Shown: one piece after another, positions 28,152 through 49,024 of the stretch
Numbering within the stretch: position 1 is the first letter of the stretch
How the letters are laid out: the number at the start of each line of letters is the position of its first letter
Program-made: the position numbers and the translations under genes
Virus record (IMG/VR): IMGVR_UViG_2866816733_000004
Span: 1 to 64,000 of that record
DNA: 64,000 nt
Origin: a virus
Lineage: Duplodnaviria > Caudoviricetes
Direction: 5' to 3' (one strand)
Notes under the pieces: generated by a model
Told to the model about the DNA's origin: nothing
Database searches by the model: none
The model's input: the letters and a program-made list of their open reading frames with translations, nothing else

Positions 28152-28358
28152 TCCCCAAGACGCACACCCGGGCCTCAGCTCACAGCGCCCCGGCGCGCCC
28201 CCTGGCGTGCCCACACCCCGCGCAGTTCGGCGTCCCCGTCCGTCTGCGCAAGGCCGGGAGCCCGCACCGTAGAGCGCGTGGGGTGTCCACGATGCGGGCT
28301 CCCGGTCCACCTCCGGCCTGTCGGCCGTTCACGACACGACCAGCAGCCGGGAGGCGCC

Positions 28359-28805
28359 GTGGCCGATCTAGTGATGAATCTGGTCAAGGGGAAGGTGCGT
28401 CAGTACACGGCGCTGCCCGGCACGAATGACGCGCTGATCGTCGTGCCGCTGGAAGCGACCGGCCTCGAGGCCGACGCGACGCTGAAGGACTACGACACCC
28501 TCGCCGCGCTCCTCGCCGGTTCGACCAACGAGCAGACCACCCTCGGCAGGAAAACGGTCACAGCGTCGATCACCGAGAACGTCGACGACACCAACGACCG
28601 CGTCGACGTCGACATGCCGGACATCGTCTGGGCCGCTACCGCGGGCAACCCGGTGGGCGCAGTACTGATCTGCTACGACCCGGACACCACGGGCGGCACC
28701 GACGCTGACATCGTCCCGCTGGTCAAGCTGGACACTCCGTTCACCCCGGACGGCACTGAGGTAACGATCTCCCTGAACGCCGCCGGGTTCTACCGGGCCG
28801 CGTAA
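28359..28805 (+). CDS. Small beta-rich virion structural protein (fibre/minor tail-like)
   Basis: VDDTNDRV.VD.PD..W, ICYDPDTT.GTD.DI.PL, TPDG...AGFYRA; SD GGGAGG. Confidence 0.7.
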   Translation: MADLVMNLVKGKVRQYTALPGTNDALIVVPLEATGLEADATLKDYDTLAALLAGSTNEQTTLGRKTVTASITENVDDTNDRVDVDMPDIVWAATAGNPVGAVLICYDPDTTGGTDADIVPLVKLDTPFTPDGTEVTISLNAAGFYRAA

Positions 28806-28818
28806 GGCCCCGATCCCC

Positions 28819-30018
28819 GTGCCGGCTCTGCTGCTCGACTCCGACACCTTCCCGTTCGCCGACGGCAACGCCGGACACCTCTGCGACCTCGGCGCCGCGC
28901 CCGCGGTCGGGGACCTGGACGTGCTGTGCGTCAACTCCGACACGGTCGTCACCATGCCGTCGGGGTTCTCGGCAGCAACATCCCGCGTCGCGAACCAAGG
29001 CAGCTACCTCTGGTACCGGAAGGCTGTCGGCGGCGAGGCCGCAACGGTCACGATCACCACAAGCGGCAACTTCAACTGCCAGGTGTCGTGGTCACGCTGG
29101 CGAGGGGTCGACGCGTTCGACAAGTCCGCTGTCGCCGGCGCGGACGCTTCCGCAGGGTCGGCGACCCCGACCGCAACCACAGCCGGGCTGGCCGCGACGA
29201 ACGAGCTCTCCATCGGGTTCGGCGCGATCCACGGCGCGGTCACCTCCAGCCCTGTCTGGTCGTCCGGGTACACGCCTCTGTCGGCGGTGACGCAGGGCAC
29301 CGGAGTCGGCGCCTCGACCGGGTACGTCGCGTACCGCACGGACGCCGGGACCGCGGCAGAGGCCCCGTCGGTGTCGTGGACGACCCCGGCACCCGACCGG
29401 TACATGCTGGTCGCGACGTTCACGACGGTCGCCGCGACGACAGTGAACGCCGGTCAGGCCACCGAAACAGACACTGCGCTTCCCGCGTCGCCGCGTAAAG
29501 CCCGTACCGCGGGCCAGGCCGTCGAGGCTGACTCAGCACTCGCCGTCCAGGCCATCACCAAGCTCGCCGTCGCAGGGATGGCGACAGAGACGGACACGGC
29601 GCTCCCAGCCGCGCTCCGGAAGACCCTGACGGCCGGACAAGCGACCGAGACCGACTCCGCGTTCCCGGCCACGGCCCGCAAGGTCGTGTACGCGAGCATC
29701 GCAGTCGACACCGAGACGGCGCTGCCGGCCACGCGCACGAAGCGGCTCGCAGCCGGGCAGGCAGTCGAAGCCGACTCGGCGCCGGCGCCCGCGGTCACGA
29801 AAACCATCGCCACTGGCCTCGCCGTTGAGACCGACACCGCCCGCCCCGCCACGGCCCTCAAGGTCCGCCGCGCGGGGATCGCCGTAGAGACGGACACGGC
29901 ACTGCACGCCACCGCCGGGGAGCTCGTTGACATCACCGTCACGGTTGGGCCGCTAGCACGCGGTTGGACGGTGGGGGAGCCGGCGCGGGGCTGGTCAGTC
30001 GGGGCGCCTACGACGTGA
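28819..30018 (+). CDS. Fibre-like protein: N-terminal beta domain + eight 20-aa repeats
   Basis: Repeats AG.A.E.D.A.P...K at ~29449-29916. Confidence 0.75.
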   Translation: MPALLLDSDTFPFADGNAGHLCDLGAAPAVGDLDVLCVNSDTVVTMPSGFSAATSRVANQGSYLWYRKAVGGEAATVTITTSGNFNCQVSWSRWRGVDAFDKSAVAGADASAGSATPTATTAGLAATNELSIGFGAIHGAVTSSPVWSSGYTPLSAVTQGTGVGASTGYVAYRTDAGTAAEAPSVSWTTPAPDRYMLVATFTTVAATTVNAGQATETDTALPASPRKARTAGQAVEADSALAVQAITKLAVAGMATETDTALPAALRKTLTAGQATETDSAFPATARKVVYASIAVDTETALPATRTKRLAAGQAVEADSAPAPAVTKTIATGLAVETDTARPATALKVRRAGIAVETDTALHATAGELVDITVTVGPLARGWTVGEPARGWSVGAPTT

Positions 30019-30027
30019 GGGAGTCCG

Positions 30028-30309
30028 ATGCTGTCGATCCCCTCGACGTCCAAGGAGTACCTCCACATCCCGGTCACCGGCGGGACGTTGTCCACGCCTG
30101 TGGATATCGCTGTGATCGCCGCAACCGCGGAGGAACCCACCTCGGGGGATTGGAAGCCCGCAGACGTGTGGGACGGCGCCGTCGCCAAGCTCCTCATCGG
30201 GCCGGGCGGCACGGTGCCCCTCGCCGACGGCGTGTACCGGGTGTGGGTGCGTGTCACCGCCACCCCGGAGATTCCAGTGCTCCGCTCCGGGCTTTTGGAG
30301 ATCACCTAA
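30028..30309 (+). CDS. Small beta-sandwich structural protein (BppU-like C-terminus)
   Basis: LLIGP.G...L..GVY.VWVRVT..PEIPV. Confidence 0.65.
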   Translation: MLSIPSTSKEYLHIPVTGGTLSTPVDIAVIAATAEEPTSGDWKPADVWDGAVAKLLIGPGGTVPLADGVYRVWVRVTATPEIPVLRSGLLEIT

Positions 30310-30779
30310 TGCAGGGTGACCCCCGCCAGGTCCCGTACGACATGCGCCCACACAGGGACGCCGTCCATGCCTGGTTCAGCCTGTCGTACAGCAACTACGC
30401 CGTCCTGCCCCGCACGCTGCTCCAGTCGATGCCCGACGAGTGGCAGAAACGCTTCGTGGAGCTCCTTGAGGAACTGCACACCGAGTTCGCCCACGTGGAG
30501 CAGGCCGACGGCTACGAAGTCACCGCAGGCTCGTGGCTGTACGCCAACGAATGCAGCTCAGCTCAACTCAAGGCGGCAGGCGTCAAGATTGTCGAGACCG
30601 ACGACGAAGACGGCACCGACGACGAGACCTGCTACGTCAACCGCGACGGCGACGAGATCGACGGCCACCAGTACGTGTTCGTGCCGGGCACCGAACCGAT
30701 CCCGCACTACAGCCGAGGACGCACCTACGTGCCTCCCGCCAGCGTCCTCAAAACGCTCAGGATAGAACCCGGCGAGTGA
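30309..30779 (+). CDS. Hypothetical phage protein
   Basis: H.WF.LSY.NY.VLPR.LLQSMP.EWQ.RFV motif; TAATG coupling. Confidence 0.75.
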   Translation: MQGDPRQVPYDMRPHRDAVHAWFSLSYSNYAVLPRTLLQSMPDEWQKRFVELLEELHTEFAHVEQADGYEVTAGSWLYANECSSAQLKAAGVKIVETDDEDGTDDETCYVNRDGDEIDGHQYVFVPGTEPIPHYSRGRTYVPPASVLKTLRIEPGE

Positions 30780-30788
30780 GGAGACTCG

Positions 30789-31484
30789 GTGCCCGCCGAC
30801 CTGCTGATCATCGTTCCGTCCCGTGGACGCCCCCACAACATCGCCGCCCTGTGGGACGCCTGGCAGGCCACGACCACCGGCGCCGCTGAACTCCTCGTCG
30901 CAGCGGACGACGATGACCCCACACTCCCCGGCTACCGGCAGGTGTGCGGAGAGCGGGGCATCGAGCTGCGGATCGGACCGCGGCGCCGCATGGTCCCGAC
31001 GCTCAACGAGGTCGCGCTCGAGCGGGCGACGCGACACTTCGCGCTCGGCTTCCTCGGAGACGACCACCGTCCCCGGACTCTGGGCTGGTCGGCGCACTAC
31101 CTCGCCCATCTCCAGTCCCTCGGCAGCGGCTTCGTTTACGGCAACGACCTGGTCGCCAAGGACCGGCTCCCGACGCAGTGGGCGCAGACCTCGGACATCG
31201 TCCAGACGCTCGGCGCGATGATCCCGGCGCACGTCACCCACCTCTGGGCCGACAATCAGATCTGGGATCTCGGTCACGCGATCGACCGGATCCGCTACCT
31301 CCCGGACGTCATCGTCGAGCATTGCCATCCGCTCGCCGGCACTGCCGACGACGATGACCGCTATCAGGAGGTGAACCACCCGGACGCCTTCGAGGCTGAC
31401 CGGCTGGTGTACGCCGACTGGTACGCCAACCAGTTCCCTGCGGATGCTGAGAAGCTCCGGACGCTGATCGGGGCGTCCAGGTGA
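30789..31484 (+). CDS. Glycosyltransferase (GT-A fold, GT2-like)
   Basis: LLIIVPSRGRP, VAADDDDP, FLGDDHRPRT.GW, H.WADN, VEH.HP. Confidence 0.8.
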   Translation: MPADLLIIVPSRGRPHNIAALWDAWQATTTGAAELLVAADDDDPTLPGYRQVCGERGIELRIGPRRRMVPTLNEVALERATRHFALGFLGDDHRPRTLGWSAHYLAHLQSLGSGFVYGNDLVAKDRLPTQWAQTSDIVQTLGAMIPAHVTHLWADNQIWDLGHAIDRIRYLPDVIVEHCHPLAGTADDDDRYQEVNHPDAFEADRLVYADWYANQFPADAEKLRTLIGASR

Positions 31485-32053
31485 CGGAGTGGCGGCTGTT
31501 CGACGGCGACCGACCGCACGTGTCAACGCTCGATTTCCATCGCGACCGGGAGCGTGCACCGCACCTGGAGCAGCCCGCCCATCACGACCGGCTCCACCGC
31601 GCCGCCGAGCACGTCCGCGGACTGCGGCCGACGAGTGTCGTTGACCTCGGCTGCGGCGACGGCGGGCTCCTGTCGCTGATCCGGGACATCCCGTCGTGGG
31701 GGTACGACTGGCAGCCGTCCAACGCCGCTGGCTGGGCCGCGCGCGACGTAACCGCGGAGACCCGCGACGTGTTCGAGTCCCGAGACGCGCCCCGCTGGGG
31801 CGAGTGCGCGGTCGCCACGGAAGTTCTGGAGCACCTCGCCGATCCCCATGGCACGGTCGCGTGGATCGCCGCCCATGCCCGCTACATCGTTGCGTCCTCG
31901 CCGGCGTTCGAGACCGGTGACTCGGCCAGCGAGTGTCACGCATGGGCGTGGGACGTCGACGGGTACGCCGACCTGATTTCCCCAAGCTTCACGATCTTGT
32001 CGCATGAGGTCGTCGGCTGGACACAACTGCTCGTCGGGGAGGCGCGGCGCTGA
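31481..32053 (+). CDS. Class I SAM-dependent methyltransferase
   Basis: VVDLGCGDGGLL, TEVLEHL.DP. Confidence 0.88.
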   Translation: MTEWRLFDGDRPHVSTLDFHRDRERAPHLEQPAHHDRLHRAAEHVRGLRPTSVVDLGCGDGGLLSLIRDIPSWGYDWQPSNAAGWAARDVTAETRDVFESRDAPRWGECAVATEVLEHLADPHGTVAWIAAHARYIVASSPAFETGDSASECHAWAWDVDGYADLISPSFTILSHEVVGWTQLLVGEARR

Positions 32054-32946
32054 TGGACGTCGTTGTGACCGGCGCGCGGGGCTTTCTAGGCCGACACCTC
32101 CAAGCGGCCCTGGAAGCACGCGGCGACTATGTCCTCGACATCGATGTGGATCCCGACCAGGAGTGCAACCGGGACGCGTTGGAGTTCTTCCGCGACGACC
32201 CGCACATGTGGGATCTAGCGATCCACTGCGCTGCGGTGGAGCCCCACCGCTCGGCGATCGACGGACGCGCCCTCGCGGTAGGCGCCGGAAACCTTGAACT
32301 GGATGCGGCGATGTTCGGGTGGGCGGCGCGTGTCCACCCAGGCCGCCTGGTCTACCTCTCCAGCTCGGCCGCGTACCCGGTGTACCTGCAGACCGGCGAC
32401 TACCGGGTGCCGCTGCGGGAGCACGACACGTGGGAACAGCCTGGTGAGGCCGACGCGATTTACGGCGCGGTGAAGGTGATGGGGGAGCGCCTCGCTCGCC
32501 TGTACCGGGAACAGGGCGGCGCTGTGACGGTTGTGCGGCCTTTCAGCGGCTACGGCGAGGACCAGTCCTCCGACTTCCCGTTTGGGGCATTCCGCGATCG
32601 CGCGCGGCGACGTGAGGACCCGTTCGTGGTCTGGGGCGATGGCACCCAGGTCCGCGATTGGATCCACGTGGACGATGTGGTGGGCGCTGTGCTCGCCGCG
32701 GTAGACGCCGCCGTGGACGGCCCGGTGAACATTGCTACCGGGATCGGGACGAGCATGGCGGAGCTCGCCGAGATGTTCTGCGCTCAGGTCGGCTACGACC
32801 CGCCTTTCGAGTACCTTACGGACCGGCCTGCCGGGGTGGCGTACCGCGTCGGTGACCCCACCGTCCTCAACGAGTTCTACAGGCCGAAGGTGACGCTCGC
32901 GGAGGGCGTGAAAAGAGCGCTCGCAAGGCAGCCCGTCAACATGTGA
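32053..32946 (+). CDS. NAD-dependent nucleotide-sugar epimerase/dehydratase (extended SDR)
   Basis: VTGARGFLG, YLSSSAAY, YGAVK, RPFSGYG, WGDGTQVRDWIHVDD. Confidence 0.93.
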   Translation: MDVVVTGARGFLGRHLQAALEARGDYVLDIDVDPDQECNRDALEFFRDDPHMWDLAIHCAAVEPHRSAIDGRALAVGAGNLELDAAMFGWAARVHPGRLVYLSSSAAYPVYLQTGDYRVPLREHDTWEQPGEADAIYGAVKVMGERLARLYREQGGAVTVVRPFSGYGEDQSSDFPFGAFRDRARRREDPFVVWGDGTQVRDWIHVDDVVGAVLAAVDAAVDGPVNIATGIGTSMAELAEMFCAQVGYDPPFEYLTDRPAGVAYRVGDPTVLNEFYRPKVTLAEGVKRALARQPVNM

Positions 32947-32974
32947 TCAACGTTCCGGTCTGGACAATAGACGC

Positions 32975-33211
32975 GTGAGCAACCGTGACGCCGAAAACTT
33001 CTGGACCGGGAACGGCGGCCACCTCTGGAAGACCGACCGGGGACCGGACAGCGCCTGCGCCCGCCCCGAGTGCGGCCTGTCCTATGCGCGGTGGAGCGGC
33101 GACCGGTGCCCGGCTGCGCCGGACTGTGACGCTGTGTTCGAGGGCGCGCGGTGCGGGCTTGAGCAGGGCCACGACGGCGACCACGAAGCCACGCTGGTGT
33201 GGGCGTCGTGA
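32975..33211 (+). CDS. Small Cys/His-rich protein
   Basis: C...C..C; CGL..GH.GDH. Confidence 0.55.
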   Translation: MSNRDAENFWTGNGGHLWKTDRGPDSACARPECGLSYARWSGDRCPAAPDCDAVFEGARCGLEQGHDGDHEATLVWAS

Positions 33212-33483
33212 CGAGCCTCAGCGACCTCAACCGCGAAGAGTGGGCGGACAAGCCGTACTTGATCGAACTTCGCGGCGGCAGGATGGACGGCAACCGCTTC
33301 CGCAGGAACAAGTTGGCGATCACCTGGTGCGTCCCTGAGATCGTAGAGCCCAGCCTCGTAACTGACGCGGACGGGATCTTCCGACCAGAACTCGTCCCGC
33401 TCTCGATCTACCGGCGGACAGGGATAGTCACCGACGACGGCGTCCACATCTACCAGTTCGAGGGCATCGAGCTGATCAACTGA
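33208..33483 (+). CDS. Hypothetical protein
   Basis: L.GG.MDG motif; GTGA coupling. Confidence 0.6.
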   Translation: MTSLSDLNREEWADKPYLIELRGGRMDGNRFRRNKLAITWCVPEIVEPSLVTDADGIFRPELVPLSIYRRTGIVTDDGVHIYQFEGIELIN

Positions 33484-33492
33484 CGGATCGGG

Positions 33493-34206
33493 GTGACCGT
33501 GCCCTCTCCGATCCCGTTGCTGGTCCTGACGAACGGCCGCCCGGACTGCATCACCAAGACGCTCCGCTCCGCGGCCGAGCATCTTCGCGGTGCCGCCCCG
33601 ATGGTGATCCTCGACGACTCCGGCGACGATGTGTACGGTCGGTGGCTGGAGGACGAGTTCATCGGCGGCCCGCTGGACGGCCACGTCCTCCACCTCAACA
33701 ACCAAGAGCGCGGCTACTGGCGGGCAATGCAGGCCGTGTGGCGGTACGCCCGCTACGTCTTCGACTACATGGGCGTGGACAAGGCTTTCTTCCTCGAGGA
33801 CGACTTCACGTTCAACGGGGACGTGCACGTCGACGATCTCGCCGGCGTGCTGGACGCGCACCCGCACCTGATCCAGATGGCTCTGTTGCGGCAGCCTTGG
33901 TTCGGCAACGAGGTCCGGCTCGGCGGGCTGATCGAAGCCCTCGAAGCGGGCGGCCAGGAGTTCACCGAGACCACCGACGGCACCCACTCGTGGGTCGAGC
34001 ACCGGGCCTGCTTCACTGGCAACCCGTCGCTGATCCCGCGACGCACGTTCGAGCGGGACTGGCCGGAAGGCAACTGGTCGGAGAGCAGGTTCGGCCGGGC
34101 GTTGTTCGCGGCCGAACCGGACGCGCATGGGGCGTACTGGGGCCGCCGCACCGACGCCCCTCGCGTGGAGCACATCGGCCACGAACGAGCCGGGTCCGAC
34201 TACTGA
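33493..34206 (+). CDS. Glycosyltransferase (GT-A fold)
   Basis: VLTNGR..C, ILDDSGD, FFLEDDF, QMAL.RQPW, FT.NPSL, VEHIG. Confidence 0.8.
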   Translation: MTVPSPIPLLVLTNGRPDCITKTLRSAAEHLRGAAPMVILDDSGDDVYGRWLEDEFIGGPLDGHVLHLNNQERGYWRAMQAVWRYARYVFDYMGVDKAFFLEDDFTFNGDVHVDDLAGVLDAHPHLIQMALLRQPWFGNEVRLGGLIEALEAGGQEFTETTDGTHSWVEHRACFTGNPSLIPRRTFERDWPEGNWSESRFGRALFAAEPDAHGAYWGRRTDAPRVEHIGHERAGSDY

Positions 34207-34499
34207 ACCTCGTTGCTCTCGCCGAGCATGTTGTAGACGGTCTGCCGGGCCAGCCCACTGTGGTTGATGATCGCCTGAGGCTGGGTGTCGCCTTCACCGT
34301 TGTGCCGCGCAGCGCGGACGGCGGCGTCCATGTACCGCATGATGTGTCGGACCTGCTCGCGTGCGGCCTTGAGGTCTTCGCCGAGGAACTGGAGCGTCTG
34401 TAGCGCATCGACCTCGGTCTCGAACTCGAAGACGGGCTCCTTGGTCCAGTCGAGGTCGGTCTCGATGTCGATCGGGCCGGTGAAGGTGATCTTGGCCAT
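34200..34499 (-). CDS. Small helix + HTH protein (antisense insert)
   Basis: AAVRAAR...QPQAIINHSGLARQTVYNML; SD GGGAG. Confidence 0.78.
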   Translation of the reverse strand: MAKITFTGPIDIETDLDWTKEPVFEFETEVDALQTLQFLGEDLKAAREQVRHIMRYMDAAVRAARHNGEGDTQPQAIINHSGLARQTVYNMLGESNEVQ

Positions 34500-34516
34500 G
34501 GTCGCTCCCATGCATT

Positions 34517-34571
34517 GTGTCTAATAGTAGACACTTTAGATTGTGAGCGGCGACCTGTCTAGTGCTAGACA
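34517..34571 (-). promoter_or_regulatory. Two TGTCTA-N4-TAGACA palindromes overlapping a - strand promoter
   Basis: 34517-34534 and 34556-34571; - strand TAGACA-17nt-TAAAGT. Confidence 0.72.
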
Positions 34572-34660
34572 CCTCCAAGCCCCCGGTCTGTCGTCGCCTC
34601 GTGGAGTGGGGTCGCCACGGCAGACCGGGCCCACCCACTCCACCCGAGGGACCCCGGAAG

Positions 34661-35224
34661 ATGCGCTTCTTCTACGACACCGAATTCATCGAGCGAGGCC
34701 CCACCTACCCGCTCGACCTAGTCTCGATTGGGATCGTCGCCGACGACGGCCGAGAGTTCTACGCCGTGAGCGCCGAGTTCGACCAGCGCGCACTGCTGTC
34801 CAACCCGTGGCTCGCCGAGAACGTCTGGCCGTCGCTGCCCACGACGGAGCCGCGCCAGTACCGCGACAGGCTCGCCCCGCATGGGCGCCTCGACCTCGAC
34901 GACCCAACGGTCCGGACCCGCGCCCAGATCGCCCGCGCAGTCCGCTCCTTCATCCTCGGCGACCACCCCGACGAACTGCCGTACGTGGAGCTGTGGGCAA
35001 ACTACGGCGCCTACGACCACGTCGCTTTGTGTCAACTGTTCGGGTCGATGGTGGACCTGCCCGATGGCATGCCGATGTTTACTCGCGACCTCCAGCAGGA
35101 GGCCGCACGGCTCGGTCTCAAGGACGCTGACCTTCCCAAGCAGTCTGAGGGGCTCCACAACGCGCTGGCCGACGCCCGCCACAACAAGGTGGTCGCGGAG
35201 TTCCTCAACGCTCAGGTTGCATGA
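34661..35224 (+). CDS. DEDDh 3'-5' exoribonuclease (RNase AS/Rv2179c-like)
   Basis: FFYDTEFIE, SIGIVADDGREFYAV, LWA.YGAYDHV.LCQLFG.M, HNALADAR. Confidence 0.9.
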   Translation: MRFFYDTEFIERGPTYPLDLVSIGIVADDGREFYAVSAEFDQRALLSNPWLAENVWPSLPTTEPRQYRDRLAPHGRLDLDDPTVRTRAQIARAVRSFILGDHPDELPYVELWANYGAYDHVALCQLFGSMVDLPDGMPMFTRDLQQEAARLGLKDADLPKQSEGLHNALADARHNKVVAEFLNAQVA

Positions 35225-35613
35225 TGATCCGCGCCTTCATCCGCGAGGACCTCCCCGGCATGTTCCTGGAGATCGCTCTCATCCAGGTGTCGGACGACAT
35301 GCCTCGCCGGATCCTGCGCATCGATGAGGCCGGCGCGAACACGACCTACCGGTGGGAGGACCTACCGGACCGTCCCACGAACGTCGCCCCGACGCTCCAA
35401 CTCGGTGACAGCGAGGCCCGCGCGCTGCTGGAGGCGCTGGGACGCCACTACAGCGGCGGCTCCGACGTCCGTGCCCTCCGAGCCGACCTGGACTACGAAC
35501 GCAAGCGCGTAGACGAGCTGATTGCCCTCATGGGCGCCGTCATCGCCAACGGGATACAACGACCGCCGCGCCGCCCGCCGGATCCGCTGATTCGGAAACT
35601 GGCCGGGGAGTAG
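35221..35613 (+). CDS. Hypothetical protein
   Basis: ATGA coupling; high GC3. Confidence 0.65.
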   Translation: MMIRAFIREDLPGMFLEIALIQVSDDMPRRILRIDEAGANTTYRWEDLPDRPTNVAPTLQLGDSEARALLEALGRHYSGGSDVRALRADLDYERKRVDELIALMGAVIANGIQRPPRRPPDPLIRKLAGE

Positions 35614-35615
35614 AC

Positions 35616-35795
35616 GTGACCACCGCCGACGAGGCCCATGTCGTCCCGCTCAACGACCTGATCGAACACGACACCGAAGGCGACTGCGTCTGCGTACCCG
35701 AGGCACGCCCGGTGACCCGCGATGACGGTTCGATTGCATGGCTGATGGTGCACCACTCGTTGGACGGGCGCGAGACCTCGGAGCAACTGCAGTGA
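35616..35795 (+). CDS. Small His/Cys hypothetical phage protein
   Basis: HVVPLNDLIEH...C.C.P...VHHSLDGRE, read manually. Confidence 0.7.
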   Translation: MTTADEAHVVPLNDLIEHDTEGDCVCVPEARPVTRDDGSIAWLMVHHSLDGRETSEQLQ

Positions 35796-36493
35796 CCCGC
35801 GTCCTCGTTGGCATTCCGTGGCGCCACCAGCCGCACCGCGTCTACGCCCACGACCTGACCGTCCAGCGCTACGAGGAACTGCTGCCGGACGCGACGGTCC
35901 TGGACTTCGACACCGAGCACGAGCAATTCTGTCTGGCTGGCGCGAGGAACTTGGCGGTCCGCTTCGGCGAGCGCGTCAGAGCCGACGTCATCGTCCTCGC
36001 CGACGCAGACACCCTCCCGGAGCGAGAGCCGCTCCTCGCCGCGATCGAAGGCGCCGCTCACAGCAGCGTGGTGCATCTGCCGTACACCGAGTACCGGTCG
36101 CTGCGCCGCGACGGCACCGACCAGTTCCTCGTCGGCGTCCCGTTGCAGGAGTGCAGCCACCTGGTCGTGGACGGCGCCTGCTCCGGCGTCTACGTCACCA
36201 CACCCGCCACCTGGGGGGCCCACGGCGGCCAAGACGAGCGATTCCGCGGCTGGTCGCCAGAGGACGCTGCCTGGATGGCCGCACACACGACCCTCCTCGG
36301 CGACCCGGTCCGCCACAGCGGACGCGTCTACGCCCTCCACCACGACTCACCACCGAAGACCGGCCCCGACCACGAAGCCGGCTACGCGCTGGTCTACCGC
36401 TACCACCAAGCCCAGGGCGACCTGGCCGCGATGCGCCGCCTGATCGCCGAGGCCGAGACCTGCAACAAGTCAACATCCGCCACCGGCGGGTAA
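35792..36493 (+). CDS. Glycosyltransferase (GT-A, galactosyltransferase/GT7-like C-terminus)
   Basis: IPWR, ARNLAV, DxD motif ADADT, GGQDERFRGW.PED. Confidence 0.85.
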   Translation: MTRVLVGIPWRHQPHRVYAHDLTVQRYEELLPDATVLDFDTEHEQFCLAGARNLAVRFGERVRADVIVLADADTLPEREPLLAAIEGAAHSSVVHLPYTEYRSLRRDGTDQFLVGVPLQECSHLVVDGACSGVYVTTPATWGAHGGQDERFRGWSPEDAAWMAAHTTLLGDPVRHSGRVYALHHDSPPKTGPDHEAGYALVYRYHQAQGDLAAMRRLIAEAETCNKSTSATGG

Positions 36494-36759: not shown

Positions 36760-37071
36760 ATGGCGTACGGTCCACGCTCCGCCCGCACATCCCCGCTGCC
36801 ATCGGACTGGGAAAGTTATCGTCGGCCAGCTGTGCTCGAGCGCGACGGGTACGTATGCCAGTGGGAGATCAGCAGGGACGGCACGAGGTGCGGCCGTCCA
36901 GCGACGGACGTCGACCACATGGGTGCGGCCGATGACCACCGCCTCGAGCTCCTGCGTGCGCTGTGCGGGCCGCATCATCGGCGTCGCTCCGGCGCGCAGG
37001 GTGCCGAGGCGATGCACGCGCGGAAGATCCCTCGGCAGCGGCCAGTGGAGCGGCATCCGGGTCTGCTGTGA
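36760..37071 (+). CDS. Packaging-associated HNH endonuclease
   Basis: LP.DW...R..VL.RDGY.CQ...C...ATDVDH...L..LC..HH; directly upstream of TerS. Confidence 0.85.
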   Translation: MAYGPRSARTSPLPSDWESYRRPAVLERDGYVCQWEISRDGTRCGRPATDVDHMGAADDHRLELLRALCGPHHRRRSGAQGAEAMHARKIPRQRPVERHPGLL

Positions 37072-37448: not shown

Positions 37449-37904
37449 ATGGCTGGACGCGGCCCCGCCCCCAAGCCCGCTGATCGCCGGGCACGCGCCA
37501 ACAAGGACACCGTCGGGCAGACGGTGCTGCGGTTCGAGCGCGCCGCACAGCCCGAGCTTCCCGACGACGTGGACTGGCATGACCGGACCCGGGACTGGTG
37601 GGCGATGTGGGGCCGGTCGGCGCAAGCCGAGACGTTCACCGCGACCGACTGGTCGTTTCTGCTGGACACGGCACTGATGCATCACGCGATGTGGAGCAAG
37701 GGGCAGTGGACCCTCGCTGCTGAGGTCCGGCTGCGGGTCGCGAAGTACGGGGCGACCCCTGAGGATCGCGCGAGGCTGAGGATGGTCTTCGCGGACGCGG
37801 ATGAGAAGGACGAGAAGCGTGCTGCGAAGGCGGGCGCGTCGGCGCGGGAGCGGTACGGGAAGCTGCGGGTGCTGCCGGCCGGTAAGGCGTCCGGGGGCGA
37901 GTAG
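37449..37904 (+). CDS. terS: Terminase small subunit
   Basis: MAGRGPAPKP, WH..T..WW, AEVRLR.AKYGATPEDRARLR. Confidence 0.88.
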   Translation: MAGRGPAPKPADRRARANKDTVGQTVLRFERAAQPELPDDVDWHDRTRDWWAMWGRSAQAETFTATDWSFLLDTALMHHAMWSKGQWTLAAEVRLRVAKYGATPEDRARLRMVFADADEKDEKRAAKAGASARERYGKLRVLPAGKASGGE

Positions 37905-39577
37905 TGCCCTGGCGCGGCCCGGAGTACCCGGGGGAGCTCCCGACGCTCGGCTACTACGCGCTGGACTGGTTCGCGGAGATGCTGATCGTCCCGGATGGTC
38001 CGGCGGCGGGGCAGCCGCTGGTGTTCACGCCGGAGCAGGCGCAGTTCGTTCTGGATTTCTACGCGGTGGATCCGCGGTTCGAGGGACCCGCGATCCGCGG
38101 CAGGGCGCTGGTGAACGCGCGGCGGATCCGGCGGGCGGTGTTGTGCCGGCCGAAGGGGCACGGGAAGTCGCCGCTGCTGGGTGCGCTGTGTCTGCTGGAG
38201 ACGCTCGGCGAGGTGGTGCTGGACGGCTGGGACGCCGATGGGGAGCCGGTGGCGCGGCCGTGGACGTCGCTGGGCTTCAAGGCCAAAGCACAGATCGTCG
38301 CTGTCAGCGAGGACCAGACGACGAATACGTGGGATCCGCTGCTGGAGATGGCCCGGAATGGGCCGGTGTACGACGAGTACGACATCGAGCCGATGGAGAC
38401 GTTTGTGAACGTCCCGCGCGGCCGGATCGAGTACACGACGTCGTCGGCGGTGTCGCGTGAGGGGTTCCGGCCGGTGTTCGCGGCGATGGACCAAACCGAG
38501 TCGTGGGTGAAGTCGAACGGCGGGCTGAACTTGGCGGCGTCGATCCGCCGGAACCTGGCGAAGGTGAACGGGTCGTCGGTGGAGACCCCGAACGCGTGGG
38601 TGCCTGGTCTGGACAGCGTCGCGGAGAAGTCGCATCAGGCGTGGCAGCAGCAGGTCGAAGGCCGCCTGAAGGGCGACGACGGGATCCTGTTCGACCACCG
38701 CGAGGCGCCACCGGACACCAACCCGGCCGACCGGGACTCGCTGATGGCGGGCCTGCGGGTCGCCTACGGCGATTCCGGGGACCTCAACGGCGGGCACGTG
38801 AACCTTGAGCGGATCTTGCAGGACTACTGGGATCCGGCGACGGACCCCGGTGAGGCCCGCCGGTTCTACCTGAATCAGATCGCGCCGGCGACGGACGCAT
38901 GGTCGACGCCACAGGAGTGGGCGGCGTGCGCCGACCCGACTGTGGTGGTCCCAGACAGCGCCGAGATCGTGCTGTTCTTCGACGGGTCCAAGTCCTCCGA
39001 CGCCACGGCGCTGATCGGATGCGACATGGAGACAGGGCATGTCTTCGACGCGGGCGTGTGGGAACCCGACCCCGGCGACCTGGACGACCAGGTGCCGGTG
39101 CATGAGGTCGACGCTGCGGTCGCGCGGGCGTTCGAACGGTGGCAGCCGGTGGCGTTCTTCGGCGACGTGCGGGAGTGGGAGTCGTTCGTCCACACGCTGT
39201 GGCCGGAACGGTACGGCGACCGGCTGCTGGTGATGGCGAACCCGCGGGGTCGGAACGCGGGGCCGGTCGCGTGGGACATGCGGTCGCGGACGCGGGACTT
39301 CACGCTCGCCGCGGAGACGTGCCACACCGAGATCGAGCAGCGGCAGTTCACTCATGACGGGTCGTCGCCGGTGGCGAGGCATGTGGCGAATGCGCGGCGG
39401 CGCCCGAATCGGTACGGCGTGTCGGTCGGGAAGGAGTCGCCGCGCTCGCCGTTGAAGATCGACGCGGCGGTGTGCGTGATCGGCGCGCGGATGGTCCGCC
39501 GGATCGTGCTGACCTCCCCTGAGTGGGCGAAGCGGACGAAGAAGAAAACCCGGACCGGCCGCGTCTACGGGTTCTAG
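37904..39577 (+). CDS. terL: Terminase large subunit
   Basis: Walker A RPKGHGKS, AVSEDQT.NT, FFDGSKSSDATAL, KIDAAV. Confidence 0.93.
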   Translation: MPWRGPEYPGELPTLGYYALDWFAEMLIVPDGPAAGQPLVFTPEQAQFVLDFYAVDPRFEGPAIRGRALVNARRIRRAVLCRPKGHGKSPLLGALCLLETLGEVVLDGWDADGEPVARPWTSLGFKAKAQIVAVSEDQTTNTWDPLLEMARNGPVYDEYDIEPMETFVNVPRGRIEYTTSSAVSREGFRPVFAAMDQTESWVKSNGGLNLAASIRRNLAKVNGSSVETPNAWVPGLDSVAEKSHQAWQQQVEGRLKGDDGILFDHREAPPDTNPADRDSLMAGLRVAYGDSGDLNGGHVNLERILQDYWDPATDPGEARRFYLNQIAPATDAWSTPQEWAACADPTVVVPDSAEIVLFFDGSKSSDATALIGCDMETGHVFDAGVWEPDPGDLDDQVPVHEVDAAVARAFERWQPVAFFGDVREWESFVHTLWPERYGDRLLVMANPRGRNAGPVAWDMRSRTRDFTLAAETCHTEIEQRQFTHDGSSPVARHVANARRRPNRYGVSVGKESPRSPLKIDAAVCVIGARMVRRIVLTSPEWAKRTKKKTRTGRVYGF

Positions 39578-39601: not shown

Positions 39602-42337
39602 GTGGCGCTCTCCGACGTGGAAGCACCGGATACGGCGAAGAGTCTGCTGGCGTTGCGGGAGGACGAGCAGCGCCGCCTGTCGAAGATTACCGCGTACATG
39701 GGTGGCAGGCAGGACAGCGTGTACGTGCCGCGCGGCGCCCGGCAGGAGTACCGGTGGCTGATCAAACGCGCGAAGGTCAACATTCTGCCGCTTGTGGTGA
39801 CGGTGGTCGCCCAATCGCTGTTCGTGGACGGGTACCGGCCAGAGCGCACTGATAAGAACGCGAGGGCTTGGGAGTACTGGCAGGCCAACCGGATGGACGG
39901 TCGGCAGCACGGCTTGCATCGGGCGACGTTGAAGTACGGGGTGGCGTACACGCTGGTGCTTCCGGGGCAGCTCGCGGAGCAGCCGATGCCGGTGATCACG
40001 CCGAAGTCGCCGCGGCGGTTGACGGCGTTCTACGCCGACCCTGTCGAGGATGAGTGGCCGCTTTACGCGGTCGAGGTGAAGGTCGAGAACCAGTCGAACG
40101 GTAAGAAGCGGCAGGTCGTGTACCTGTATGACGAGAAGTCGCGGTTCACGCTCGTCGGTGATGGGAGGCCCGGCACGCCATTGGTTCTGGCCAGCGAGGA
40201 CGCGGTCGCCGAGCACGGCCTTGGCGTGTGCCCGGTGGTGCGGTACCTGAACGGCGACGACCTGGACGGCGACGAATGTGTCACCGGTGAGGTCGAACCG
40301 CTGTTCGACATGCAGGACCAGCTGAACTCGACGACGTTCGGCCGGATGATGGCCGAGCAGTTCGCGGCGTTCCGGCAGCGTTACGTGTCGGGGATGGTCG
40401 CTGAGGACGAGGAAGGCCGACCGCGGGCCCCCTTCCAGTCGGCAGTGGACCGGCTGTGGGTGGCTGAAGACGCCGATACCAAGTTCGGGGAGTTCGATCA
40501 AACCGAGCTCGGCGGATACCTGAAGAGCGCTGAGGAGACGATCCGGCACATCGCGACGGTGTCACAGACCCCACCCCACAACCTCCTCGGGCAGATGGCC
40601 AATTTGCCTCTGGCGCTCGACACGCCTGTTTTGTCACCCCACGGCCGTAGGGTGATGGGTGTGTTGAAGCCGGGTGATGAGGTATTTGCTCCTGACGGAA
40701 GCGTGGTCAGAGTCAAGGCTGTGTCGCCGGTGTTCCACGACCACGAGTGCTATCGAATGCGGTTCGACGATGGTACTGAGGTGGTCGCTGACGCTCAGCA
40801 CCGCTGGACGACGACGCACTTTGTGAACCCGGCCAATCCGTATGGCCCGGCAAGGCATCTCACGTGCCCGGAATGCGGTTGGGTTCCGCGAGCCCGGAAG
40901 GCGCCAGCGCGTGGAGTCGCGCTCCACAGGTCCCGCTCGCACGGAATCTCCGCAGTGGCGGCGCCCAAGGGGGGTGCTCGCGAGACGTCGGTTGTGACGA
41001 CCGCCCAGATCGCTGCCAGCCTGCGCACGTCGATGGGGACGTACAACCACTTCATTCCGGTTGCCAAGCCATGGGACGGGCCTGAGCGGGACTACAGCAT
41101 CGACCCGTATGCGCTGGGGGTCTTCCTTGGTGATGGCGACCATATCCACGGCGCGATCACCAGCCACAAAGATGACGCGGAGGAGATGGCCGCTCACCTA
41201 CGTGCCTGCGGCGAGTTCGTTGATGTCTGTCCCTATGCTGACGGCAGCGATAGGCGCTACATCCGGATCCGTAATGACCGGGAGCGTTGCCCCTACGGTC
41301 ACGAACGTCCCCGCGGAACGCGTTCGGACACTGCGCGGTGCCACGAGTGCCGACGCATACGTGACCGTGGCGACTCAGAGACTCGGATCAGGGTCAACTC
41401 GACATTCAGATGGCGCTTCATGGCCCTGGACCTTCGACGGAACAAGCACATCCCGGAGGAGTACTTCCGTGGCTCCTTGAAGCAGCGCCTCGCCCTGCTC
41501 CAAGGGCTGATGGACACCGACGGGACTGTGAACCGCGGGCAAGGGTCGGTTGCAATCACCTTGCACGACGAGCGGCTGGCGCGCGACCTCTACCGGCTAG
41601 TCTGCTCTTTGGGGCACAAGGTAGTCCTCCGCGAACGCCCGTGGACGTCGAAGCAACTCGTTAAGTCGGGTATCTGCTGGCGTATGACATGGGCAGCACC
41701 TGACATAGTCTTCCGCCTGGCGCGGAAGGTGGCGTTGCAGCGTACCGACTTCGGTGATGGTGACGGTGACGGGAAATCCAACAGCCCGTTCCGGCGCTAC
41801 GTTGTCGCTTGCGACCTCATACCTTCGGTCCCAGTCCGCTGTATCACCGTGGACTCTGACGATCACCAGTTCTGTGTAACTGATTCCTTTGTCCCGACCT
41901 GCAACTCAGCTGAAGCTTTGAACGCCGCGCGTGACGGGTTGAACTCTAAGGTCGCCGAGCGGAAGAGCACGACGGGGGAGTCGCATGAGCAGACGCTTAG
42001 GCTCGCGTCGCTAGCTGCTGGGGACCAGGCGGGCTGGAGGGACACCGCAGCGCAGGTCGTGTGGCGCGACACTGAGTCCCGAAGCCTGGCGCAGACGGTT
42101 GATGCGCTCGGGAAGCTCGTGCAGATGCTGGGTGTACCTCCCGAGGTGCTCTGGGAGCGGATCCCGAACGTCACCCAGCAGGACGTGGAGCGGTGGAAGG
42201 CCGCGGCAGAGAAGGGTGACGCGATCGGCCAGCTCAACAAGATCGTCGCGAAGCAGACCGGTCGGGTCGCTGAGCTGACCGCAGCCGCGACAAGCCCCGC
42301 GCCGGTGGCGGCGGCGAACGGTGCCGTCCCAGGCTGA
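39602..42337 (+). CDS. Portal protein (SPP1 Gp6-like) interrupted by an intein
   Basis: WQANRMD, GVCPVVRY, GEVEPL..QD, AFRQR, NL|SAEAL, WRDTE.RSLAQ.VDALGK. Confidence 0.93.
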   Translation: MALSDVEAPDTAKSLLALREDEQRRLSKITAYMGGRQDSVYVPRGARQEYRWLIKRAKVNILPLVVTVVAQSLFVDGYRPERTDKNARAWEYWQANRMDGRQHGLHRATLKYGVAYTLVLPGQLAEQPMPVITPKSPRRLTAFYADPVEDEWPLYAVEVKVENQSNGKKRQVVYLYDEKSRFTLVGDGRPGTPLVLASEDAVAEHGLGVCPVVRYLNGDDLDGDECVTGEVEPLFDMQDQLNSTTFGRMMAEQFAAFRQRYVSGMVAEDEEGRPRAPFQSAVDRLWVAEDADTKFGEFDQTELGGYLKSAEETIRHIATVSQTPPHNLLGQMANLPLALDTPVLSPHGRRVMGVLKPGDEVFAPDGSVVRVKAVSPVFHDHECYRMRFDDGTEVVADAQHRWTTTHFVNPANPYGPARHLTCPECGWVPRARKAPARGVALHRSRSHGISAVAAPKGGARETSVVTTAQIAASLRTSMGTYNHFIPVAKPWDGPERDYSIDPYALGVFLGDGDHIHGAITSHKDDAEEMAAHLRACGEFVDVCPYADGSDRRYIRIRNDRERCPYGHERPRGTRSDTARCHECRRIRDRGDSETRIRVNSTFRWRFMALDLRRNKHIPEEYFRGSLKQRLALLQGLMDTDGTVNRGQGSVAITLHDERLARDLYRLVCSLGHKVVLRERPWTSKQLVKSGICWRMTWAAPDIVFRLARKVALQRTDFGDGDGDGKSNSPFRRYVVACDLIPSVPVRCITVDSDDHQFCVTDSFVPTCNSAEALNAARDGLNSKVAERKSTTGESHEQTLRLASLAAGDQAGWRDTAAQVVWRDTESRSLAQTVDALGKLVQMLGVPPEVLWERIPNVTQQDVERWKAAAEKGDAIGQLNKIVAKQTGRVAELTAAATSPAPVAAANGAVPG
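40607..41905 (+). mobile_element. Class 3 intein (433 aa) with LAGLIDADG endonuclease
   Basis: Starts PLALDTPV; block B ADAQHRW; YALGVFLGDG and LLQGLMDTDG; block F VRCITVD; ends VPTCN|S. Confidence 0.9.
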
Positions 42338-44613: not shown

Positions 44614-45576
44614 GTGGCCTACAACGACATCATCAGCCGGGACGCGTCCAACGACCCGCTGATCCCGACCCCGGTCTCCGCGCAGATCCTGCAGGAGATG
44701 CCGACCGAGTCGTTCATCCTGCAGCGGGCCGGCCAGGTCCGCATGTCCACAAAGTCTCAGCGGCAGCCGGTCCTGGACGTGCTTCCTCGCGCCTACTGGG
44801 TGTCGGGCGACACCGGCCTGAAGCAGACCAGCGCGGTCGACTGGAAGAACGTGACCCTGGTCGCCGAAGAACTCGCGGTGATCGTCCCGATCCCCGAGGC
44901 ATATCTCGACGACGCGCAGGTCCCAATCTGGGATGAGGTCCGACCCCGGATCGTGGAAGCGCTCGGCAAGGCGATCGACTCGGCCTGCCTGTTCGGAGTC
45001 GACAAGCCCTCCTCATGGCCGGCCGACATCTACTCCTCCGTGGTCGCGGCCGGTAACACGGTCCGGATCGGCACGGGAGAGGACTTCGGCGTCGACGTCG
45101 CAAACCTCGGCGAGAAGATCGCCAAGGACGGCTTCGCCGTCAACGGGTTCGCATCACGGCCTGGCCTGAAGTGGAAGCTGGTGGGGCTCCGTTCCACGGA
45201 CGGGATCCCAATCTACCAGCCGGACCTGCAGAACGGCGGCGGCGGAAACCTATACGGATACGGCCTGTCGGAAGTCATCAACGGATCCTGGGACTCCGAC
45301 GAGGCCGAACTGATCGCTGGCGACTGGTCCAAGTGCGTGATCGGCATGCGGCAGGACATGAGCTGGAAGACCTTCACCGAGGGCGTCATCTCTGACGCCG
45401 ACGGCAAGGTCATCCTGAACCTCATGCAGCAGGACTCGATGGCGCTGCGAGTCGTCATGCGGCTGGGATACGCGACGTCCAACCCTGTGACGGCGCTGAA
45501 CACCGACGCCAACACTCGCTTCCCGTTCGGCGCGGTCCAGGCGGCCACCGCCGACAACGTCGCCGGCTCGGCCTGA
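44614..45576 (+). CDS. Major capsid protein (HK97 fold)
   Basis: LIP.PVS.QI, PVL..LP.AYWV.GDTGLKQT, EELAVIVPIPE, NLMQQD..ALRV..R. Confidence 0.93.
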   Translation: MAYNDIISRDASNDPLIPTPVSAQILQEMPTESFILQRAGQVRMSTKSQRQPVLDVLPRAYWVSGDTGLKQTSAVDWKNVTLVAEELAVIVPIPEAYLDDAQVPIWDEVRPRIVEALGKAIDSACLFGVDKPSSWPADIYSSVVAAGNTVRIGTGEDFGVDVANLGEKIAKDGFAVNGFASRPGLKWKLVGLRSTDGIPIYQPDLQNGGGGNLYGYGLSEVINGSWDSDEAELIAGDWSKCVIGMRQDMSWKTFTEGVISDADGKVILNLMQQDSMALRVVMRLGYATSNPVTALNTDANTRFPFGAVQAATADNVAGSA

Positions 45577-45656: not shown

Positions 45657-46652
45657 ATGCGGGTCATGGCGATGATCCCCGACTACCCGCCCCGCGGGGT
45701 CGGGTCATGGGTCATGACACACAACCTGCTGAGGGCACTGGTGGAGCGCGGCCACCAGGCCGACGTGGTTCTGTCGGCGGCCGATGGCGACCCCTACGAG
45801 CTCGACGGAGTGCGGGTCTGGCCGCTGGTGGACAAGTCGGACCCGTTCCGATTCATTGACGACGCCCATGTCATCGTCGCGCACGTTGAGAGCGCAAGCC
45901 GGGCGCTGATGCTAGGAGAGATCCGCGGTGTGCCGGTCGCGCAGATCGCGCACAACGCCAACGCGTTCACTGAGGCGGCGCTGCGGAAACGCCCGGCCAG
46001 CCTCACGGTGTTCAACTCTGTGCAGGTGTCGGAGAAGCTGGCGGGGCTGTGCTGCCGATCCATCATTGTGCGGCCACCCGTCCGCGCCGAGGACTACGAA
46101 ACCGTCCCCGGCGGTGCCGTCACACTGATCAATCTCAGTGAAGACAAGGGCGCCGAGACGTTCTACCAGCTCGCCGAACGCCTCCCTAAGACGGCGTTCT
46201 TGGGTGTCCGGGGAGGCTACGGCGTTCAGGTGCTCCCGCGCGGACCTGAGGACCTCCCGAACGTGGAGATCCTCGGACACGTCCGGCCGGACCAGATGCG
46301 GGACCGGGTGTACGCCCGCACCCGGGTCCTGCTGATGCCGTCGGCTCACGAATCGTGGGGCCGCACCGGTGTGGAAGCGATGACCAGCGGCATTCCCGTG
46401 CTCGCGCATCCAGCTCCGGGACTGCGCGAGTCGCTCGGCGCCGCTGGCACATTCGTCGACCGCGACGACCTTGACGGTTGGGAGCGGTCGTTGCGGCTTC
46501 TGCTGGACGGGCGCCGCTGGCGTGCGGCGTCCCGGCGGGCGAAGGCGCGGGCAGTGGAACTCGACCCCACGGCGGACCTGGACCGGTGGTGCACCGAGAT
46601 CGAAGCCCTCGGCCGGAGGAGGCTGCGTGTCCGCTCTCGCGTCGCAGGCTGA
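45657..46652 (+). CDS. Glycosyltransferase family 4 (GT-B)
   Basis: YPP...GS, VTLINL..DKG, VYARTRVLLMPS..ESWGR.GVEAM.SGIPV (E-X7-E). Confidence 0.9.
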   Translation: MRVMAMIPDYPPRGVGSWVMTHNLLRALVERGHQADVVLSAADGDPYELDGVRVWPLVDKSDPFRFIDDAHVIVAHVESASRALMLGEIRGVPVAQIAHNANAFTEAALRKRPASLTVFNSVQVSEKLAGLCCRSIIVRPPVRAEDYETVPGGAVTLINLSEDKGAETFYQLAERLPKTAFLGVRGGYGVQVLPRGPEDLPNVEILGHVRPDQMRDRVYARTRVLLMPSAHESWGRTGVEAMTSGIPVLAHPAPGLRESLGAAGTFVDRDDLDGWERSLRLLLDGRRWRAASRRAKARAVELDPTADLDRWCTEIEALGRRRLRVRSRVAG

Positions 46653-48352: not shown

Positions 48353-49024
48353 GTGGCTGGTTCTGCCTACGACGACATTCAGCAGCGGAACGCCGCGCTG
48401 ATCTTCAAGGCCCTGCAGGGGTCGGTGTTCACCGCGCCGTCCACCGCAGCGGCCATCACCAACCTCACCGACTCCGGTGACAAGCTCCTGAAGGCGCTGC
48501 CCACCGGATACGAGGATGTCGGCTGGACGTCCGATGACGGCGCCCAGTTCGGCCGCGACGTCGACACTTCCGACATCACCGGCTGGGGCAGCGTGGAGCC
48601 GCTGCGGTCCGACGTCAACTCCGATGTGACGACGTTGCAGATCGCGTGCCTGGAGACCAAGAAGGCCACAATCGGGCTGTACACGGGCGCGGACATGGCC
48701 GCTGCGACCCCGGATCCTGTGTCCGGTGAGCTCAGCATCGAGAAGCCGGCCCGTCCCTCGTTCCGCTACTACCGGGTCATCGCGATTGCGGTGGACCTCA
48801 CCGACGACGGCGAATACTACGTCGCACGGTTCCTCCCGCGCGCCCGCGTCACCGACTTCGATGAGCAGGCGATGCAGTCCAGCGACGACAGCCCTCTGAC
48901 CTGGGCCGTCACCCTCACCTCGTACCAGGACGCCACGCTCGGCTACAGCGAGCGGTACATCTTCGGTGGGCCGGGCTGGGCGACGCGCTTGGCCTCGATG
49001 GGCTTCGACGCCCTCGCCAGCTGA
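48353..49024 (+). CDS. Major tail (tube) protein
   Basis: LP.GY.DVGW..DDG, WG..EP.RSD, LET, LPRA.VT, GGPGW. Confidence 0.88.
   Translation: MAGSAYDDIQQRNAALIFKALQGSVFTAPSTAAAITNLTDSGDKLLKALPTGYEDVGWTSDDGAQFGRDVDTSDITGWGSVEPLRSDVNSDVTTLQIACLETKKATIGLYTGADMAAATPDPVSGELSIEKPARPSFRYYRVIAIAVDLTDDGEYYVARFLPRARVTDFDEQAMQSSDDSPLTWAVTLTSYQDATLGYSERYIFGGPGWATRLASMGFDALAS

Follow-up and report, generated by a model that had tools for sequence, protein, structure and literature searches.

Candidate virion O-glycosylation genes in a phage element from a probable Actinomadura-like host

The first 64,000 nucleotides of a 104,490-bp contig (IMG/VR record IMGVR_UViG_2866816733_000004, Caudoviricetes), referred to here as the window, encode four glycosyltransferases (GT1 to GT4), an S-adenosylmethionine (SAM)-dependent methyltransferase (MT) and an extended short-chain dehydrogenase/reductase (SDR) of the nucleoside diphosphate (NDP)-sugar epimerase/reductase type. 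The contig is part of an assembly of 10.2 Mb in 805 contigs with approximately 68% GC. These genes probably constitute an O-glycosylation system for the virion proteins of the element itself, of the kind known from the mycobacteriophages Che8 and Corndog, and we put the probability of this reading at about 60%. Virion glycosylation had been raised as a candidate function in an earlier reading of the same DNA (the original prediction), and it is still the best reading of the comparative evidence on which the present analysis draws.

The original prediction placed five of the enzymes at 30789-36493. All five are present on the + strand with the same boundaries, in open reading frames (ORFs) with a high GC content at third codon positions (GC3), and Pfam matches, PHROG matches and two high-confidence structural models agree with the families proposed for these five and for GT4. 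The coupled run of the first three genes was also recovered, with GT1 (30789..31484) overlapping MT (31481..32053) in GTGA and MT overlapping SDR (32053..32946) in TGATG. GT1 matches phrog_14945 'glycosyltransferase' (6e-44) and has no Pfam match; it has 1747 relatives, and its DxDD and GDDH motifs are invariant in an alignment of 28 homologues. MT is a class I SAM-dependent enzyme (PF13489 Methyltransf_23, 4.6e-10, above the cut-off), and SDR matches PF01370 (6.8e-35). GT2 (33493..34206, +) is GT2-family-like, matches phrog_3047 (3e-17) and contains the motifs IVDDSGD and EDD; its ESM Atlas neighbours bear PF00535. GT3 (35792..36493, +; 233 amino acids) overlaps the preceding ORF in GTGA and matches phrog_1721 (4.6e-21), has an invariant DAD motif, and has homologues at about 61-65% identity that bear PF02709 or PF10111. 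Sequence and profile searches of PDB chains with GT1, GT2 and GT3 returned no glycosyltransferase, and the folds of GT1 and GT2 were therefore taken from models. The AlphaFold model of GT1 (predicted local distance difference test score, pLDDT, 95) has a GT-A fold with AvpGT, PcManGT, WrtF, SpsA and TarP as its top Foldseek matches, and the model of GT2 (pLDDT 92) has a GT-A fold with GnT-I, POMGnT1 and ppGalNAc-T as its top matches. Each of these two assignments draws on hundreds of GT-A matches, and that of GT3 comes from homology alone. The fourth glycosyltransferase, predicted to follow the capsid gene, does lie directly after it (45657..46652, +) and is a GT4-family (GT-B) enzyme with two Pfam domains above their cut-offs, PF13692 (1.3e-11, 45.4 bits, cut-off 27) and PF00534 (7e-11, 42.4 bits, cut-off 26.4).

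One of these enzymes can be related by sequence to a known virion-glycosylation locus. The genes gp108-gp110 of Che8 are reported to be its virion O-glycosylation genes (Freeman et al. 2023, Cell Host Microbe 31:1216, as cited in PMC12363180 and PMC11600133), and Che8 gp110 and Corndog gp38 have been named essential (PMC12363180). Che8 gp108 combines a GT2-family domain and a TylF-like methyltransferase in one protein, gp109 is GT2-like and gp110 is GT25-like. Corndog carries a free TylF-like methyltransferase (gp35) together with gp37 and gp38, the orthologues of Che8 gp109 and gp110, inside its head operon; Corndog gp37 and Che8 gp109 are 56% identical. The GT3 profile aligns with Corndog gp37 over its full length (hhalign probability 93.9%, E 1.7e-7, 207 columns; BLASTP 7e-6) and more weakly with Che8 gp109 (E 1.6e-3). 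By profile alignment, GT3 is a remote homologue of both proteins. The coupling of a glycosyltransferase gene to a methyltransferase gene in the window, and the fusion of GT1 and MT domains in a single 445-amino-acid protein of the related contig L030, parallel the fusion in Che8 gp108.

The proposed glycan acceptors are the major capsid protein (44614..45576, +; phrog_10, 5e-47), which ends ...ATADNVAGSA, and, as a second candidate, the major tail (tube) protein (48353..49024, +), which ends ...GGPGWATRLASMGFDALAS (...DALAS). The tube protein and Che8 gp11 (pairwise E 0.002) have in common the sequence GGPGWA followed by a short Ser-terminated tail. Details of the Che8 and Corndog acceptors were taken from citing papers and from the protein sequences of the two phages; the C-termini of capsid and tube protein are ...KTGS and ...SDGS in Che8 and ...LVGS and ...KGDS in Corndog. 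Capsid relatives of the window protein were collected from IMG/VR (47 proteins, 50-80% identity), and a GT4 gene lies immediately downstream of the capsid gene in 36 of them. Thirty-two of the 36 GT4-linked capsids end in Ser after tails that are otherwise variable (AGS, GGGSS, YTYS, TTSS, TTVS, TAAS, GSAS, YGS); of the other four, three have GSA or GSN at the end and one is broken. Six capsid homologues from isolated phages without an adjacent glycosyltransferase gene end E, E, P, P, F and K (Muddy, FF47, JacoRen57, ReT1v-2, Eileen, Bbif-1). The tube homologues are Ser-terminated in seven of nine cases. The capsid relatives are not independent of one another, and the Ser pattern is therefore suggestive and not a statistical proof. 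The relative L131 (11190-15200) has no GT4 gene after its capsid gene; its capsid ends ...VTGS, and homologues of GT2 and GT3 lie in its structural operon after an adaptor-like gene.

A survey of SDR homologues in IMG/VR (at least 45% identity, 34 contigs) indicates that GT1, MT and SDR recur together, with GT1 as the signature gene of the module. A GT1 homologue lies directly upstream of SDR in 31 of the 34 viral contigs, and about 20 of the contigs also have an MT homologue. The module is located within the head genes in at least 12 contigs, in the order head protease, major head protein, two small genes, a glycosyltransferase, GT1, MT, SDR, sometimes a further glycosyltransferase, head-tail adaptor and tail terminator. 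The arrangement of the window, upstream of the terminase genes, is found in further contigs and in named genomes, e.g. Actinomadura sp. CNU-125 (L138) and Streptomyces sp. R302. In the contig L025 the order is capsid, GT1, SDR, GT4.

The SDR is the new element of this gene set in comparison with isolated actinophages. None of their records among 50,697 phage records contained a homologue, and the only phage matches were cyanophage and marine enzymes at no more than 30% identity. Its nearest relatives outside the actinobacteria (L146-L156) are 41-45% identical over residues 56-288 and are found on chromosomes of Ignavibacteriota and Melioribacter metagenome-assembled genomes. The original prediction also saw in the window a fuller pathway than glycosyltransferases alone. 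This holds for SDR and GT4, which are additions, and does not hold for the methyltransferase, since an O-methyltransferase of the sugar type is already found in Che8 gp108 and Corndog gp35 (PMC11600133) and virion glycosylation has already been inferred in Rhodococcus phages from a glycosyltransferase together with a methyltransferase (PMC13313380).

Several known reactions were compared with the residues conserved among 29 SDR homologues. These residues include the GxxGxxG Rossmann motif (TGxxGFxGRH), D31 at the end of strand 2, an SS pair and YGxxK. An Asp at the end of strand 2 generally suggests a preference of such enzymes for nicotinamide adenine dinucleotide (NAD) over its phosphate (NADP). 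The best PDB match is GDP-mannose 3,5-epimerase (GME; 2e-20), followed by a UDP-glucose 4-epimerase and GDP-fucose synthase, and all curated NCBIfam models score the protein far below their cut-offs (Fcl, 64.6 bits against a cut-off of 500). NDP-hexose 4,6-dehydratases carry an Asp-Glu pair after the catalytic Thr (TDE motif). A 4,6-dehydratase of the RmlB/Gmd type was rejected, as the corresponding motif is SSSAAY without the Asp-Glu pair and the NCBIfam dehydratase models are among those far below cut-off. A 3,5-epimerase of the GME/GMER type was also rejected, as a conserved Ala stands in the place of the GME Cys and a Phe in that of Lys217. With the dehydratase Asp-Glu pair absent and the GME Cys and Lys replaced, the most likely assignment of SDR is therefore to the NAD+-dependent epimerases of the C4 type, and a 4-ketoreductase is less likely. 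The host assembly encodes many NDP-sugar dehydratases, which could supply precursors for it.

Enzyme folds and families, gene linkage and the conserved Ser termini are established here, and on them can be built a working model whose target, order of steps, sugars and timing are proposals. During lytic growth, soluble cytoplasmic glycosyltransferases would assemble a short glycan on a C-terminal or adjacent Ser of the tail-tube and major capsid subunits. GT4, the most conserved partner of the Ser-terminated capsid, is the strongest candidate for priming. GT1, GT2 and GT3 would extend the glycan, and MT, which is coupled to GT1 here and fused to it elsewhere, would O-methylate a sugar. SDR would convert a host NDP-sugar into the donor that is used by GT1.

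A number of observations weigh against virion glycosylation of this kind. BLASTP found no homologue of the GT25-like Che8 gp110 and Corndog gp38 among the window proteins, and the GT2 profile aligns with Corndog gp38 at an hhalign probability of only 4%. GT1 and GT2 have no sequence relation to the Che8 and Corndog enzymes; hhalign found none between GT1 and Che8 gp108 or between GT2 and Corndog gp36 or gp38. The window capsid terminates in GSA, so that its Ser is penultimate and not last, and 9 of the 86 predicted proteins of the window (10%) end in Ser as a background. The capsids of phages with the head-operon arrangement are not all Ser-terminated, nor is the head protein of phiAsp2, a phage with a GT1-like enzyme that is compared below. 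Several relatives with GT4 have no upstream cluster within 4-5 kb of terL (L091, L109, L128), so the two gene sets could have different targets. The GT1-SDR pair also occurs away from structural genes. In a third group of relatives, Streptomyces elements of about 90 kb (L015, L018, L021, L027, L028, L038, L140, L141, L145; some of them whole contigs), it is in a non-structural region, where it follows a 700-amino-acid FtsK-like protein and has a C5 DNA methylase and a DUF6919 protein nearby. Pfam annotation around the pair in these elements gave nothing informative except the C5 DNA methylase, and the elements may be phages, plasmids or hybrids. In BE-cluster Streptomyces phages a GT1 homologue lies among DNA-metabolism genes. 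In one of them, Annadreamy (L004, 57524-59248), it is 40% identical to GT1 and accompanied by a second glycosyltransferase and a cytidylyltransferase-like nucleotidyltransferase among recombination and nucleotide-metabolism genes; a region of Annadreamy in which structural-protein termini were sought contains only tRNAs and non-structural genes.

The alternative that survives best, at perhaps one chance in six, is lysogenic conversion, in which the glycosyltransferases would alter a glycan of the host envelope (a wall teichoic-acid-like polymer, an arabinogalactan decoration or a surface glycolipid) and thereby block superinfection or change the surface. Prophage-encoded TarP in Staphylococcus aureus and the Gtr operons of enterobacteria are precedents for such conversion. 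It would suit an element that appears temperate or integrative, and homologues of the glycosyltransferases are sometimes annotated 'cell wall biosynthesis'. The structural neighbours of GT1 and GT2 include TarP, TarS and RmlT, but these matches are generic to the GT-A fold. The block also contains an antisense ORF (34200..34511, - strand; 103 amino acids, no family match, not a pathway enzyme) with a promoter-like site of its own (TAGACA-17-TAAAGT, - strand 34561-34533, in an AT-rich patch), and this ORF may be a lysogen-expressed moron. The cluster genes themselves, however, are co-directional and partly coupled with the lytic genes, and neither a separate promoter-like site nor a terminator was found on the + strand of the block. 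No membrane-like or hydrophobic segment was found in any cluster protein, and the cluster includes no membrane protein, flippase or polyprenol-linked step. In many relatives the module lies inside head operons, and GT1 homologues occur in BE-cluster phages, which we take to be lytic.

A division of labour between two systems is somewhat less probable again. GT4, next to the capsid gene, would then serve the virion, and the block from GT1 through MT, SDR and GT2 to GT3 would modify a different target, e.g. a small molecule, a nucleoside or some other protein of phage or host. The three relatives named above, which keep GT4 and a Ser-terminated capsid without the upstream block, are consistent with this division, as are the many contigs that have GT1-SDR without GT4, and the top structural match of GT1, AvpGT, is a nucleoside glycosyltransferase. 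A single target is favoured by L025, where capsid, GT1, SDR and GT4 lie in one run, by the presence in the block of GT3, the homologue of Corndog gp37, and by L131 with its homologues of GT2 and GT3 in the structural operon; the placement of GT1-MT-SDR in head operons likewise points to a virion target.

Sugar hypermodification of DNA, in which the enzymes would place possibly methylated sugars on modified bases of the phage genome and so evade restriction, is quite improbable, in line with the original prediction: the block does close the replication and recombination arm beside an exonuclease gene, the BE-cluster homologue lies among DNA-metabolism genes with its cytidylyltransferase-like enzyme, and a C5 DNA methylase is found near the module in the Streptomyces elements of about 90 kb, but no ThyA-family hydroxymethylase (PF00303) was found anywhere in the 10.2-Mb assembly (96.7% complete, this contig included), the sampled ORFs included no other recognisable base-modifying enzyme, known DNA glucosyltransferases are presumably of the GT-B or another type, and the module is flanked by capsid and adaptor genes in at least 12 relatives.

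Virion glycosylation, the preferred reading, can be carried further in a tentative way. GT1-(MT)-SDR might be a portable cassette for the synthesis and transfer of a sugar that is specific to the phage and probably methylated. In combination with a capsid-adjacent GT4 that recognises a C-terminal Ser tag, it might represent a type of virion glycosylation that is common among phages of Streptosporangiales and Streptomyces; we consider this possible and less likely than not to hold in full. If it did, the virion glycan would contain a sugar that the host itself does not make, and the terminal Ser would serve generally as an acceptor signal that can be transferred between proteins and is common to at least four capsid lineages with no relation to one another.

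The closest homologues of the enzymes in the cluster carry the names Actinomadura, Nonomuraea, Streptosporangium, Spirillospora and Sphaerisporangium, which makes a member of the Streptosporangiales, an Actinomadura-like actinomycete, the most likely host. This agrees with the non-mycobacterial actinomycete that had been proposed. Nearly all genes of the window are on the + strand. The first 28 kb are non-structural and encode a recombinase/DNA-repair protein, a Gam-like protein, WhiB, HNH, an RNA ligase and a DNA-binding protein; from 37.4 kb onwards come terS, terL, portal, major capsid protein and tail genes. The large terminase is 51% identical to annotated terminases of Mycobacteroides prophages, and it is on this similarity that the element appears to be temperate or integrative. 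The original prediction assigned the glycosylation genes to the late block, and the gene order does not demonstrate this placement. The genes stand at the end of the non-structural arm (recombinase, WhiB, RNA ligase, exonuclease), upstream of HNH, cos and terS, which matches the position of Che8 gp108-110.

Within and around the cluster there are several further genes on the + strand. Two small ORFs of 78 and 94 amino acids (32975..33483) with high GC3 have no Pfam or PHROG match. A DnaQ/Rv2179c-like 3'-5' exonuclease (34562..35224; PF16473, 5e-13; phrog_2259, 2e-50) is 41% identical to Che8 gp101, and two ORFs follow it (35221..35795; 130 amino acids, and 59 amino acids in phrog_2864), called on ORF and PHROG evidence. 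An HNH endonuclease gene (36760..37071), with HNH-type Cys/His motifs in its translation and a weak match to Che8 gp112, is located ahead of a cos-like region and of the small and large terminase subunit genes (37449..39577; phrog_1897 and phrog_226). The portal ORF (39602-42337) is 911 amino acids long and its middle part also matches 'terminase' PHROGs, which fits an inserted element.

A fibre-like structural module had been proposed upstream of the cluster. The proteins concerned (28278-30779) have no Pfam or PHROG match and are not conserved with the cluster in relatives, and they were dropped from the system on both grounds. One of them, a Thr-rich protein of 399 amino acids (28819-30018), contains approximately 8-10 repeats of AGQAxExDxALPAxxxK, has no Pfam or PHROG family and showed no conservation next to the glycosyltransferase cluster in relatives; it could be a fibre or could itself be a glycosylation substrate. 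Immediately 5' of GT1 (29964-30779) the gene call is ambiguous between overlapping ORFs of 271 amino acids, 93 amino acids (30028-30309, high GC3) and 149 amino acids. PHROG matches of the 271-amino-acid frame are limited to residues 124-176, and that part is kept before GT1 in L007 and L138.

To our knowledge, glycosylation of phage virions has been shown only for a few mycobacteriophages. The glycans of those virions shield the particles from antibodies, which soil phages, as far as we know, do not meet, and this bears on the natural role of the glycan. Freeman et al. 2023 are reported to have noted putative glycosyltransferases in some Gordonia and Streptomyces phages too. The locus described here and its roughly 80 relatives suggest that virion glycosylation is broader and modular among actinomycete phages, with one module consisting of a capsid-linked GT4 and a Ser-terminated capsid and tube protein and the other of a mobile cassette of glycosyltransferase, methyltransferase and SDR, and that the set of some phages includes a sugar-nucleotide tailoring step of their own. 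If confirmed, a glycosyltransferase gene linked to structural genes, together with a C-terminal Ser on the capsid and tube proteins, could be used as a sequence rule for recognising glycosylated virions. A confirmed system would in addition indicate a new clade of SDR enzymes and offer parts with which glycan coats could be engineered on therapeutic phages.

Of the known systems, that of Che8 is the closest in layout. The order in Che8 is gp101 exonuclease, gp108-110, gp111, gp112 HNH, cos, gp1 and gp2, and the window is collinear with it (exonuclease, glycosyltransferases, small ORF, HNH, cos, terS, terL). Both have several soluble GT-A enzymes with a methyltransferase joined to a glycosyltransferase, both have short capsid and tube tails with a Ser at the C-terminus or, in the window capsid (GSA), next to it, and the tube protein is distantly related to gp11. 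The differences are that the window MT is a Methyltransf_23 (PF13489) enzyme whereas that of Che8 is TylF/Methyltransf_24, that the window adds the extended-SDR enzyme and the capsid-adjacent GT4, that it has no gp110 homologue, and that GT1 and GT2 are unrelated to the Che8 enzymes in sequence. The probable host is an Actinomadura-like actinomycete, and glycosylation in the window is a prediction from sequence. In Corndog, gp35-gp38 are an O-methyltransferase and three glycosyltransferase-type genes within the head operon. Relatives of the window system similarly place GT1-MT-SDR inside the head operon, and the Corndog capsid and tube proteins are Ser-terminated. In contrast to Corndog, most of the window genes are upstream of terS with GT4 alone in the head operon, no gp36 or gp38 homologue is present, and SDR is.

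Two other phages and one virus of eukaryotes offer partial parallels. The Actinoplanes phage phiAsp2 (AY576796) encodes Pas34, in which an N-terminal domain with 41% identity to GT1 is joined to a methyltransferase; Pas34 is flanked by Pas33, a GT2-family enzyme, and Pas35, which resembles Che8 gp110, and the three genes directly follow the structural genes. The Pas34 methyltransferase differs from MT in being a Methyltransf_24 domain, and phiAsp2 has neither SDR nor GT4. The culturable Streptomyces phage TurkishDelight (L215, MW291017, 12983-19302) is the only isolated phage with a GT4 homologue (gp20, annotated as a glycosyltransferase, 37% identity), whose gene is flanked by those for a capsid with the terminus ...GSTS and a major tail protein with the terminus ...CVAS. 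It differs in that gp20 is 678 amino acids long with two matched places in the record, that the capsid type is unrelated, and that no GT1-MT-SDR module was seen in the part of the genome examined. The proteins of chlorovirus PBCV-1, a giant virus of eukaryotes, are unrelated and its glycans are N-linked and atypical, but the concept is the same as that proposed for the window, in that virus-encoded glycosyltransferases and nucleotide-sugar-donor enzymes decorate the capsid.

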